The notes beneath the pieces are model-generated. The model made no database searches. It saw only the letters and a list, made by a program, of their open reading frames with translations, and was not told the origin of the DNA. From positions 1 to 50,938 of the forward strand of contig JBGSTX010000118.1 of assembly GCA_041736305.1 (NCBI GenBank): 50,938 nucleotides of DNA, written 5' to 3'. Below are positions 1-3,468 of the stretch, in pieces (position 1 is the first letter of the stretch; every line of letters starts with the position of its first letter). The DNA is from Oligoflexus sp. Its GTDB lineage: Bacteria > Bdellovibrionota_B > Oligoflexia > Oligoflexales > Oligoflexaceae. The translations under genes were made by a program, and so were the position numbers.

Positions 1-1330
1 TCCGCTTGGTACCTTTGAGTGCAACGGGGGCACGATACTTTTGATTCTCAAGTGCTGTATAATCAGGCGAAAACCTTGGCGGCTCTGCCCCGCATGTTTC
101 CATGCCGAAAGATAAGATATTCCAAGCCCCCACCGCATCTCGATGGGCGACTAAACTGCATTCACCGCATTTATAAACTCTGCCTTTAACCCTATTATGC
201 TTGCGGCAATATGGATCCGGACACTGTCTGGTCGAATATCGTTCATTATGCCATTGAAACGAGATTCCGTCCGTCTTCCCCTTATAGCTGAGCATTCCGA
301 AAAAATCGCCTATCGGCCAGGAGCTATTGGCTTGATTTTGTTTCTTGCCACTCTCTTTCTGAGCTACGCTGCGGCAATCGCCGACAAAGACTTCGTTGAC
401 CTTTCTGATGCGTAAAAAATTGACGACCTTTCGCGAGTTTGTATGAAGAAAATTCATCTTTCTATTGTGAAATGTACGAATAACATGCGTCTTTTTTTGA
501 AGTTCTTTTTTTCGATTGCTGGATCCACGCTTTTTTCGATCAATTCTTGATTGCCGAAAGGCTACGTTCTTTGCGTATCCCTGATGAATGGTGCGAAAGC
601 CTCGACCCTTTAAGTTCAGCCCTTTACCGTCTTCCGTTATAATCACAGCCCAACGAATCTGACCAAGATCGATCCCAGCATACTTCACAGGAAGAACTTT
701 ATCTTTTACGTCCGATGGTAGTCTTTCCGCTATCTTAAAGATGAGATAAAAGCGCTTTTCAGAGAGATCGTAATGGATGGTGATGACTTTCGTATTCTTT
801 GGAATGCCAGCGGGAAACGGAGCGAAAAGACTTTCTCTTTTTTTTAGCTTTCCCGGCTTTTTAGGATTAATTTCCCTAGCCCGTGCAAACAATATTCCAC
901 CATTAACATATCGACAGTCACGTCGATCAAAATGGACATCGCGTCCGCCCCTTCTTTGCCGCCATGGATACTTGCAGGTTTTCCATCCTTCTGTATGTCC
1001 TTCCGAGACCGCGTTCTTTCTATTGGTCCGAGCCGTTTCGCATACACCCAAGAATTCTTGAAAGATAAGGTTTTGGGATTGAGTCGTAAGTCCAAGATCT
1101 AAAACATGTGTCATGCCAGTCATTTGCTTGGCTAAATCATACATAGAAAAATAAGGTACAAGGCCTAATCTCGCCCACCGATGATAGTCGACAAGACTAT
1201 TCCATAGCCACGATGCGTCAGCCCGCATGCAAACAAGTTTTTGGAATTCATGATCAGGCATTCCGGGCAAAGGAACTTTTTGGACTCGATGAATCCACTC
1301 TCCCTTTTTTGCACCTTTAGCTCTAACCAT
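1..1330 (-). CDS. tnpB: TnpB-family RNA-guided endonuclease (IS200/IS605/IS607-type), 3' end outside window
   Basis: Manual translation from ATG at 1330 gives 443 codons with no stop before the window edge (MVRAKGAKKGEW...). Motifs: RuvC-I YAGIDLG (D221), EVFVGD (G317), W-x-x-G-x-F-x-x-ML-x-YK, NERYSTRQC (E363), Zn ribbon CPDPYC...CGEC, RuvC-III HRDAVGAWNI (D398). Confidence 0.92.
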   Translation of the reverse strand, partial: MVRAKGAKKGEWIHRVQKVPLPGMPDHEFQKLVCMRADASWLWNSLVDYHRWARLGLVPYFSMYDLAKQMTGMTHVLDLGLTTQSQNLIFQEFLGVCETARTNRKNAVSEGHTEGWKTCKYPWRQRRGGRDVHFDRRDCRYVNGGILFARAREINPKKPGKLKKRESLFAPFPAGIPKNTKVITIHYDLSEKRFYLIFKIAERLPSDVKDKVLPVKYAGIDLGQIRWAVIITEDGKGLNLKGRGFRTIHQGYAKNVAFRQSRIDRKKRGSSNRKKELQKKTHVIRTFHNRKMNFLHTNSRKVVNFLRIRKVNEVFVGDCRSVAQKESGKKQNQANSSWPIGDFFGMLSYKGKTDGISFQWHNERYSTRQCPDPYCRKHNRVKGRVYKCGECSLVAHRDAVGAWNILSFGMETCGAEPPRFSPDYTALENQKYRAPVALKGTKR

Positions 1331-1481
1331 AATTTACTCACTGCTTACTGGTGTATGATGCGAACGCAAAAATAATTGATTCTCGGCATTTAATCACCAT
1401 AATAATTTATGTTTCAACAAGAAGTCTTGTGCGAACATCCTCCAAAAATGTTTAAGAGATTCTGCCTAAGGAAGAATAGGA

Positions 1482-2257
1482 ATGATACTAAGCGACAAAC
1501 AATGGTCTGTCATCGAGAGCTTGCTAAGGTCCTTACAAGAAGCCCGTGATCATCGCATTGGTAGACCGCCTACGGACAAAAGACGCCTCATCGATGCAAT
1601 TATTTGGATTTTGCGTACGGGGACACCATGGAGAGAGCTACCCTCATGCTATCCACCTTAGCAAACGGTGCATCGCTGGTTTCAAAAGTGGACACTTAGC
1701 GGCTTGATTCAAAAGCTTCTGCATATAATCACGGCTGAATTATACGAGAGGAAAAAAATAGATCTCAGCGAATGCTTTATTGACGGAACATTTGCATCCG
1801 CAAAAAAGGGGGGCTTCTGGTAGGAAAAACAAAGCGAGGAAAAGGAACAAAAATCATGGCAATCTCAGACCGCCATGGTCTTCCAATCGCAATCCATATT
1901 GCAAGCGCTTCCCCCCACGAGGTCAAACTTGTGATCAAGACCATAGAACAGCGATTTCTCAACGCCCTACCAAAACGATTGATCGGTGATAAAGCGTATG
2001 ACTCAGATCCGTTGGATAAGCAATTAACAGACCGATATGGAATCGATCTCATCGCTCCTCATAAGAAGAACAGAAAGAAGACAAGAACTCAAGATGGCCG
2101 CACCCTTCGCCGTTATAGAAGAAGGTGGAGAATAGAAAGACTATTTTCATGGTTACAGAACTTTCGTCGACTAGTAGTGAGATACGAATGCCATGCAGAA
2201 AATTTCTTAAGTCTAGTTGCCCTAGCATGTCTGCTTATACTTTTAAGATATTATTGA
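1482..2257 (+). pseudogene. IS5-family (IS427-like group) DDE transposase, two ORFs joined by -1 frameshift, in-frame TAG at codon 60
   Basis: orfA from ATG 1482 reads MILSDKQWSVIE...GRPPTD...WILRTGTPWRELP..YPP*QTVHRWFQKW...[13 protein letters not shown], with TAG at 1659-1661. Slippery A AAA AAG GGG GG at 1802-1813. orfB (-1 frame) reads [22 protein letters not shown]...GDKAYDSD...[18 protein letters not shown]. Confidence 0.9.
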
Positions 2258-2269
2258 GACAGCCTTTAG
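1482..2269 (+). mobile_element. IS5-family insertion sequence remnant; probable right end TTGAGACAGCCTTTAG at about 2254-2269, left end not located
   Basis: Transposase as above. The right-end-like sequence overlaps the orfB stop. No complementary copy was found upstream of orfA within the window. Confidence 0.7.
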
Positions 2270-2271
2270 TA

Positions 2272-3468
2272 TTAGGCAGCCTTTCGCCGTAGAACTCCCG
2301 ATTTTTTAACCCATACCTTCGCGCTATCTCCCCAGTAGAAGAGCGCCAGCCCGAACAGAGGTACAGCCCACTGCAGAAACGCGGCCAGGGGTAGCGGTGA
2401 GATAAGCAGGATAGTACCGAGTAAGGGTGATACTACCTGGCAAAGCGACATTAAGAACGTGATCGCTCCAGAAGCCAAGCCTGGTTCGCTGTCCGGGAAG
2501 CACTCGTAGAACTTGACCTGCTCCCAGGGAATGAAAAGCATCTCCCCAATAGTCCAAACCACGGTAACCAGGAGGAGCGCTGGCAGCGAGCTGAGAAGCG
2601 GTATTGGTGCTAGGCCAAAGGCCAGCAGGAGAGTGCCGACGAAGCCTTTTTCCCCTAGCGACCACTTCCGGCTTAGACGTCGAATAAGCGGCATTCCTAG
2701 TACGACCAGAGTCGTGTTGAGGAGCAAGATCTTGGCGTTCATTTCCGCTGCGGGCAAGCCCTTGCTAGTCAGTAAGAGCGGCAGATATGTAATATGACTC
2801 AAAAAGCCAATTGTGATGAGGCACAGTCCTAAAAGCTTGGAGGCATTAGTTTGTAGGGACGATTTTAAGAGCCTCCGTATGCTTTGGCTCGAAGTCGTGG
2901 AACCTGGAGACTGCAGTCTTTGACGTTTTAAGTAGTAAACAGCTCCGCTAAGCAAAATTAAGGTAGTAGCCAGGTCGAGCCAGAGGAGAGCGGCTCGATG
3001 AGTTTTAAGAAAGGTGAAGGCCAGAACCGAAGCGACTGCCAAAGAGCAGTTGGCCACCAGGTAACGCTTTCCAGCCATTTCCTCACGGTCTTTGCCTTGC
3101 AAACGCCCAATAATTGCTAGTGACATGACTGTTCTTAAAGTTGTCACGGCCAGGCAAAGGGCTAGTGCTCCCAGAATGAGCAGGATGCCCTCCGTGTTCT
3201 CAGGAACAAAGATCATGATGCCAAAGCTATATGCTGAGGCGACAATAAGAAAAGTTAAGAGCACGCGGCCTTGATCGAGCCAGCGACCAACTATCGGTTG
3301 CCAGAATCCGGACAAGAGGGAGGCCAGGGCCAGGACAAGACTGGCCATAATCGGACTCAATTGCCCAGTAGCAGCCAAAAGTGCAGGCATAAGAGTGATG
3401 GCAAAAGAAAAGGCACCGGAAATAAACACCAATAATAAAAGATAAGAACTCGGTCGGATCAAAGACAT
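2272..3468 (-). CDS. MFS transporter
   Basis: 398 aa with about 12 hydrophobic segments, a motif-A-like GRWLDQGR, and WTIGEMLFIP. AGGAG RBS upstream. Confidence 0.85.
   Translation of the reverse strand: MSLIRPSSYLLLLVFISGAFSFAITLMPALLAATGQLSPIMASLVLALASLLSGFWQPIVGRWLDQGRVLLTFLIVASAYSFGIMIFVPENTEGILLILGALALCLAVTTLRTVMSLAIIGRLQGKDREEMAGKRYLVANCSLAVASVLAFTFLKTHRAALLWLDLATTLILLSGAVYYLKRQRLQSPGSTTSSQSIRRLLKSSLQTNASKLLGLCLITIGFLSHITYLPLLLTSKGLPAAEMNAKILLLNTTLVVLGMPLIRRLSRKWSLGEKGFVGTLLLAFGLAPIPLLSSLPALLLVTVVWTIGEMLFIPWEQVKFYECFPDSEPGLASGAITFLMSLCQVVSPLLGTILLISPLPLAAFLQWAVPLFGLALFYWGDSAKVWVKKSGVLRRKAA

Follow-up and report, generated by a model that had tools for sequence, protein, structure and literature searches.

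A tnpB gene that may belong to an IS5-type element

We analysed 50,938 nt of DNA from Oligoflexus sp. (positions 1-50,938 of contig C27; GenBank JBGSTX010000118.1, assembly GCA_041736305.1), a stretch that in its whole length is called the window here. Its left edge carries most of a tnpB gene, the product of which is predicted to be an RNA-guided nuclease with a relocated glutamate in its RuvC-II motif (the alternative glutamate, or 'Ealt'). The explanation that we favor, with a probability of about 0.65, is that this tnpB and an omegaRNA overlapping its 3′ end form a module that lies in, or is moved by, an IS5-type insertion sequence (IS). The TnpB-omegaRNA module itself is very probable, and it seems fairly likely that an IS5-type transposase carries or moves it.

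Identity and completion of the gene

window 2..1330, minus strand: tnpB, codons 1-443 of an inferred 513 (from the frame, the residues, the profile matches and the contig join)

The minus-strand frame that starts with the ATG at 1330 has 443 codons without a single stop and is open at its 3′ end. The original prediction, made from the letters of the window, had described just such a frame running off the window, and translation of 2-1330 bore it out. The aspartates of RuvC-I (D221, within GIDLG) and RuvC-III (D398, within AHRDAVGA), the two residues of the RuvC-II region (G317 in EVFVGD and E363 in HNERYST) and a C4 zinc ribbon (C370-x4-C375 ... C388-x2-C391) were all found where that prediction had placed them. 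It had also proposed a search with hidden Markov models, which we ran. Pfam gave OrfB_IS605 (1.7e-8) and Cas12f1-like_TNB (9.4e-14), and the NCBIfam model guided_TnpB (NF040570) matched residues 153-406 with 104.5 bits, above its cut-off of 100.

A word-index search of 5.8 billion proteins revealed eight full-length relatives of 474-515 aa with 44-77% identity. D221, G317-D318, E363, the four cysteines and D398 were invariant in 9/9 family members, that is, in these eight relatives and the window protein. When 1.84 billion representatives were searched exhaustively, 1407 of them matched at E <= 0.001, and just four reached E <= 1e-30. Judged by its sequence, the gene is a real and apparently intact tnpB, predicted to encode an RNA-guided DNA endonuclease of the RuvC type. 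We infer that the window TnpB has nuclease activity.

Base 1 of the window is base 1 of contig C27, so it is the assembly, and not the choice of the window, that truncates the gene. Contig C67 starts with the reverse complement of window 1-141. This overlap of 141 nt is exact, and the 141-mer is present only in C27 and C67; the assembly has 761 distinct contig-end 141-mers, 22 of which are shared between ends. On C67, the frame continues for 70 codons (C67:142-356) to a TAG at C67:354-356, which gives a protein of 513 aa in total. The join is supported by the lengths of the relatives (474-515 aa) and of the homolog L032 (514 aa), which are consistent with 513 aa, by the similarity of the C67 tail to the tail of the homolog P0002 (74% identity over 116 aa), and by a bridging contig of 1551 nt from sequencing run X1. 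The latter contains C67:1-191 without difference and extends 1360 nt further upstream. Run X1 was the best run containing this DNA (0.91 of the sampled words). Its label names a hot-springs metagenome, which is possibly the sample that the genome came from. No RNA run was among those listed for C67:1-700. The depth in run X1 was 23.5 for the contig over tnpB, and 9.68 and 8.75 for two flank contigs. Depth is not copy number, and these values, which would fit two to three copies sharing tnpB to about window 1501, are only a hint. The C-terminal tail of at least 45 aa that had been predicted proved to be real, with 70 further codons on C67. The sequence left of the window, where the rest of the element had been expected, also held the stop codon, an omegaRNA-like structure and an element end.

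The relocated glutamate

We aligned the family profile to the solved AsCas12f. VFVGD fell under IQMEDL, which puts G317 beneath the canonical RuvC-II glutamate, and DERYTTR fell under DPQYTSQ, which puts E363 beneath a proline. Therefore, the assignment of a glycine plus a displaced glutamate rests on an alignment and not on inspection alone. For residue counts, the matches of at least 300 aa from both protein searches were pooled (127 in all; 34 shorter ones were left out). Gly317 was present in 123/127 and Glu363 in 123/127 of these nearest relatives, and both were present in 122/127. Two canonical relatives in the same alignment had Glu at the 317 position and Pro or Arg at the 363 position. 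In the window protein, the alternative Glu lies 46 residues after G317 and six residues ahead of the zinc ribbon (E363-x6-C370).

This layout has been described before. In the largest rearranged group, RIIr-5, a Gly replaces the Glu and an alternative Glu compensates, according to the available text of PMC10691335. Passages of PMC10530073 put the alternative Glu about 45 residues away and describe that TvTnpB ('TnpB2') cuts DNA, that the E467A mutant of ApmFanzor is dead, and that TnpBs and Fanzors with a relocated Glu cleave DNA; the same passages report these enzymes to be without collateral activity. In the section of PMC10711439 on this residue, 'Ealt' sits six residues ahead of the zinc finger, and pro-Fanzors and Fanzors are said to carry DPG in RuvC-I as well. 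On sequence grounds, the window TnpB belongs to this published RIIr/TnpB2/Ealt class, a large known clade, and the rearrangement itself is not new. It shares with the class the Gly in place of the canonical Glu, the alternative Glu, the D...E...D triad, the C4 ribbon and the position of the putative omegaRNA at the 3′ end of the gene. It differs in that its subfamily is small and rare, and in a tail of 70-84 codons, predicted to be disordered, that overlies the RNA.

The claim of a TnpB with a relocated RuvC-II Glu therefore stands, as the residues are conserved and members of the class are described as active in the texts cited (PMC10530073, PMC10691335). The site had also been called Fanzor-like. 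This is true of the relocated Glu but not of RuvC-I, which has DLG where, in the available part of PMC10711439, pro-Fanzors and Fanzors are defined by DPG. A proline was found at that position in 13/127 relatives. The window TnpB shares the relocated Glu and the fold with Fanzor2 and pro-Fanzor TnpBs, but it has DLG instead of DPG and a bacterial host (a prokaryotic bin). Nor was it closer to Fanzor2 by profile (E-values of 1.8e-17 with AsCas12f and 6.5e-10 with the mimivirus Fanzor2). No IS607 serine recombinase was found at the locus, the neighbors being a DDE transposase and a major facilitator superfamily (MFS) transporter; a genome-wide search for one was not made. One family member, P0008 (491 aa), has GIDPGQ in RuvC-I, and thus the DPG signature of pro-Fanzors. 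Its nearest relative, P0009, has DLG, so the motif flips inside the family.

An AlphaFold model of the 443-residue window protein, built with a 104-row alignment, had a predicted local distance difference test score (pLDDT) of 93.7 and a predicted template modelling score of 0.86. In the model, the strand 217-222 ends at D221, the strand 313-318 holds G317, the strand 357-362 stops just before E363, and D398 opens the helix 397-412. These modelled positions fit a rearranged site. Gly317 would replace the Glu of strand beta-4, and E363, at the end of the next strand, would complete a D221-E363-D398 site. Foldseek aligned about 440 columns of the model with AsCas12f, OsCas12f, ISDra2 TnpB, ISFba1 TnpB and the mimivirus Fanzor2 (TMq 0.57-0.66). 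The values were 0.60-0.66 for AsCas12f, ISDra2 TnpB and Fanzor2, with 0.63 for the mimivirus Fanzor2 entry 9b0l_P. The N-terminus had been considered atypical. This did not hold for the model, in which it is that of an ordinary TnpB/Cas12f fold although divergent in sequence. The modelled protein shares the WED-REC-RuvC-zinc ribbon fold with ISDra2 TnpB and AsCas12f across all 443 residues, whereas those two have the canonical beta-4 Glu. ISDra2 has a Y1 TnpA partner and no inverted repeats, and AsCas12f has a CRISPR array.

A predicted omegaRNA at the element end

C67 ~175-383, same strand as tnpB: omegaRNA-like structure (from RNAalifold and covariation)
near C67:381-383: element end, with a terminal motif at C67:369-383

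The predicted RNA lies almost wholly within the last ~70 tnpB codons, and the tnpB stop is ~25 nt from the element end. We searched the genome with the 3′ region of C67 using BLAST and nhmmer and found eight strong copies (95-159 bits) and four weak ones (20-42 bits). The strong copies fell into three sub-families, A (C67, C8 and C207), B (C149 and C233) and C (C200, C222 and C49), with 98.6-99.3% identity within each. The likeness of all eight ends just past TTGAGACAGGCTG-TA(G/A), sub-family C reading TTCGGACAGGCTG; copies were identical through ...GACAGGCTG-TA and then differed. The same end motif follows the stop codon of a family member in another genome (L005:620-637) and is found in L032 (5560-5572). 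The 20 nt beyond each copy's end were unique in the genome, as expected for guides read from flanking DNA.

RNAalifold predicted 48 pairs from five sequences of four lineages. In the alignment, 85.3% of the cells were paired, compared with 30-47% when the partners were slid by 1-3 columns. Seventeen pairs changed on both sides, compared with 5-7 in the slid controls, and 0/500 shuffles reached the observed values; these figures call for caution, as the pairs were counted on the very five sequences that had yielded the structure. A second point against the structure is that the two alignments give the terminal RNA segment different partners (ACGGACC, or AGC.UG with L032). When L032 was added, the hairpin CCCCG/CGGGG became CCACG/CGTGG. 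The fold of the single C67 sequence had a minimum free energy z of -2.74. No omegaRNA family of Rfam was matched at E <= 1 in L001, L002, L003 and L005.

An omegaRNA or a CRISPR array had been expected beyond the left edge. The first expectation agrees with the structure on C67. The second does not, as we found no tandem repeats in C67:1-1640 and no 23-mer occurring at least three times in C67; an IS, and not a CRISPR array, lies upstream. A disrupted 3′ end with no conserved omegaRNA, which would have told against an active system, was not observed either; the tail is open and the structure on C67 covaries. We infer from these sequence patterns that the C67 region produces an omegaRNA. It would be encoded on the tnpB strand across the last ~70 codons and would end at the element terminus, and its 3′ guide would therefore be read from flanking DNA.

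The overlap of the RNA with the tail codons left a distinct pattern of change. Between lineages, the differences in the gene body at codon positions 1/2/3 were 145/115/264, 139/109/262 and 107/94/238, most of them at the third position. In the tail they were even (28/29/23, 32/32/26 and 31/30/30). The tnpB frame had no stops in the tail in 4/4 lineages, compared with 1-6 in each of the other two frames, and an open tail frame arose in 2.5-21% of shuffles per lineage. In a model of the full-length homolog L032, residues 431-514 had pLDDT < 50 and no secondary structure. We read the conservation of the tail as driven by the RNA, with the frame merely kept open. As the last 70-84 codons are stop-free in 4/4 lineages, change evenly and are predicted to be disordered, it may be passage of the ribosome, and not the peptide, that has been selected.

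The four weak matches to the omegaRNA profile (C118:9564-9693, C246:868-939, C219:29674-29727 and C285:2844-2932) may be decayed copies. The copy at C222:4480-4749 (L011) comprises only the last ~250 nt of tnpB, that is, the tail codons and the RNA. It has no TnpB homology upstream and is therefore a 5′-truncated remnant or a solo omegaRNA.

The DDE transposase gene and the inverted repeats

window 1331..1481: spacer that separates tnpB from the divergently oriented DDE gene
window 1482..2257, plus strand: IS4/5-type DDE transposase in two frames (DUF4096 and DDE_Tnp_1)
window 1482-1820, plus strand: DUF4096 part, interrupted by an in-frame TAG at 1659-1661
window 1802-1808: A_AAA_AAG heptamer for a -1 frameshift, in the zero frame
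window 1784-2257, plus strand: DDE_Tnp_1 part, in the -1 frame
window 2247-2266: transposase-side terminal inverted repeat, ...ATTATTGAGACAGCCTT, followed by TA at 2267-2268
window 2272-3468, minus strand: MFS transporter gene, with its stop 4 nt from the TA of the element

The DDE gene begins ~150 nt upstream of tnpB in divergent orientation. Pfam recognized DUF4096 (9.8e-18) on 1482-1658, resuming past the TAG, and DDE_Tnp_1 (9.5e-21). The MFS gene ends 4 nt from the TA, so the element lies just past its stop codon. The original prediction had seen no tnpA in view. For a Y1 TnpA this was correct, as there is no Y1_Tnp on C27 or C67 and only four fragments on other contigs of the genome, but the IS4/5-type DDE transposase at 1482-2257 (plus strand) had been missed. 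The adjacent Y1 TnpA and the lack of inverted repeats by which IS200/IS605 elements are recognized were not observed at the tnpB locus.

The outer transposase end is common to C27, C31, C262 and C343, which are identical through ...ATTATTGAGACAGCCTT-TAG and then diverge. What remains of the element in C262 and C31 is only 231 and 59 nt. When the transposase end and the tnpB end are both read from inside to outside, 17/20 bases before the TA match in register (binomial p 3e-8). A transposase paralog on C9 (66% identical) ends with ...TTTTTGAGACAACTTC-TAG. Allowing up to 3 mismatches, the 16-nt end motif had 64 matches genome-wide, of which 10 were the ends described here, C166, C176 and C231 were further near-matches, and 51 were others. 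At the same threshold, there was no match in window 1-2253, and hence no copy of the repeat between the two genes. The sigma-70-like sites overlapping the spacer, one per strand, were weak (2 found, 0.8 expected). Thus, ~2.5 kb from C67 ~383 to window 2266 is bounded by inverted repeats, with TA on both sides and C and G outside (C-TA-G). This arrangement, with a DDE transposase and tnpB between terminal inverted repeats, holds for one copy and depends on the join of C27 and C67.

In another contig record of the genome, at L002:2020-2035 and 2510-2525, there are 16-nt inverted arms (88% complementary) that resemble the IS end motif CTGAGACTGGCTTT. The arms flank a 474-nt segment in outward-facing orientation; they could mark where two more elements end, or have arisen by chance.

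ISL2 and IS1031 are groups of the IS5 family. A 2026 review names both of them, together with IS630, for DDE-associated TnpBs (PMC13565253, in the text available). Six TnpB branches associated with DDE transposases (DDE-1 to DDE-6), all with inverted terminal repeats, are described in the relevant part of PMC10691335, where the 3′ end of tnpB in these branches is usually at most 250 bp from the element end and where these ends are also described on solo TnpBs. The window locus resembles them in having tnpB beside a DDE transposase and symmetrical inverted-repeat ends, and the window family in having the tnpB stop near the end (~25 nt here) and solo copies with the same end. It differs in that the pairing is found at one locus and the transposase gene has an in-frame stop. 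The arrangement of tnpB with a DDE transposase is already in print, and the DDE association is not new.

One element or two neighbors

If tnpB and the transposase gene form one unit, the tnpB-side terminus and the transposase-side terminus would be the paired inverted repeats of a single cut-and-paste IS of ~2.5 kb that had entered a C-TA-G site and is flanked by TA left and right. The DDE enzyme would move the unit, and TnpB would cut the emptied site to restore the element. More tentatively, the two functions could be joined in the terminus itself. The ~20-nt end would then be both the terminal inverted repeat of the transposase, as DNA, and the guide-adjacent end of the omegaRNA, as RNA; the transposon-adjacent motif (TAM) of TnpB would be the element's C/T-TA target; and ribosome passage over the tail would be under selection. 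With the element's own target as TAM, TnpB could tell an emptied site (C-TA) from an occupied one (G-TA).

Several observations weigh against a single unit. The tnpB-DDE pairing was seen at one locus only. A paralog in the same genome (C314, 59% identity) has no upstream DDE gene, and the L032 gene (62% identity) is a solo gene that lacks a left repeat, its 43.6-kb record containing no DDE homolog. Genome G027 has only a weak DDE match of 42 residues, its tnpB (L005/L008) being 5′-cut by the contig start. The relocated-Glu relative in L009 (32% identity, same order) adjoins a classical Y1_Tnp gene (4.1e-39); therefore, the wider clade is IS605-like and the DDE context is derived. Because of the in-frame TAG in its transposase gene, the window copy could not mediate its own transposition. 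As a TA is present at every end, it does not prove a single insertion event. Finally, no empty site was found, and the loci of the MFS relatives show no synteny. Relatives of the MFS gene with 29-57% identity (55-57% for the closest three) occur in 10/21 other genomes of the taxonomic family, and at the 11 loci of these relatives neither the gene of the C67 flank nor the other neighbors in the window are present.

These points raise the alternative of two unrelated neighbors, namely a solo, IS1341-like TnpB of the IS200/IS605 type that is moved in trans by a Y1 TnpA, and an IS5-type element inserted alongside. In that case, the shared end motif would be a part of the omegaRNA that resembles the IS end by coincidence or convergence. 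The absence of a DDE gene from three other family loci, the Y1_Tnp gene next to the L009 relative and the four Y1_Tnp fragments in the genome are in line with this. So is the fact that solo copies, too, have kept the end motif, which a need of the RNA for it would predict. However, coincidence has to account for an in-register match of 17/20 bases (p ~3e-8) between two boundaries that were each set independently by the divergence of copies. Moreover, the DDE gene lacks a separate inverted repeat on its 5′ side, the second DDE paralog (C9) ends in a related motif, and no conserved subterminal left-end hairpin was found among three upstream regions. We therefore consider two unrelated neighbors unlikely.

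Quite improbable is an immobilized TnpB that was exapted for a host function such as guide-RNA-directed regulation or defense by a nuclease. Most TnpB clusters are reported to be immobile in the available text of PMC10691335, and the two assembled family genes of this genome are just 59% identical. Yet all of the catalytic residues are kept, closely similar 3′ ends (98.6-99.3% identity) are found beside differing flanks, and the family is patchy (2/131 phylum genomes at E <= 1e-30, own genome counted). A dead nuclease, in which the canonical RuvC-II Glu has been lost (as it has in the window protein) and E363 is non-catalytic, is the least credible alternative, considering that Gly and the relocated Glu co-occur in 122/127 relatives, that the two canonical relatives combine Glu with Pro or Arg, and that enzymes with the relocated-Glu layout are described to cleave DNA, the alternative Glu being essential in ApmFanzor (PMC10530073, same passages). 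A TnpB-omegaRNA module within, or moved by, an IS5-type element remains the best explanation.

Such a module would add to the relocated-Glu TnpBs a member of compact size (513 aa) that seems to be intact and to have moved recently, and eight copies in a single genome show directly where its guide RNA would end. The class is of interest for editors, as it is reported to be without collateral cleavage in the passages of PMC10530073 cited above. The pairing with a DDE enzyme would be a natural bacterial case of transposon-restoring cleavage under cut-and-paste excision, a combination described as rare in prokaryotes in the accessible part of the 2026 review (PMC13565253). We see its main value as a tractable, DDE-linked bacterial OMEGA element (from obligate mobile element-guided activity) and as a compact nuclease candidate.

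Distribution and other loci

Within the order, 3/95 genomes had a member of the family at E <= 1e-20; within the phylum, 2/131 did at E <= 1e-30, the own genome being counted in both. A search of genome contigs gave three loci, one of them in the window tnpB family. Among plasmids, 268 records matched; the best of the matches listed had 26.8% identity, and none came from the window tnpB family. The homolog L032 is on a viral contig, where its tnpB lies next to phage-like genes.

The genome has eight guided_TnpB matches. The paralog on C314 scored 99.1 bits, just below the cut-off of 100. It occupies L002:2-1369 on the minus strand with 456 codons and also runs off its contig. Upstream of it are an open reading frame of 70 aa and a tRNA-Arg(CCG) gene (L002:1892-1966). 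We considered the former as a remnant of a DDE gene and rejected this, as it gave no BLASTP alignment and no Pfam hit. Six guided_TnpB matches are outside the window family (C83, C150, C1, C259, C79 and C157); in three cases the frame is open over 550-583 aa.

In Alicyclobacillus kakegawensis (L007:410-4294), a relocated-Glu TnpB with 33% identity lies between genes for SSB and a BRO/KilAC antirepressor, just downstream of a gene for a Gp3-like recombination directionality factor, a setting that resembles a prophage.

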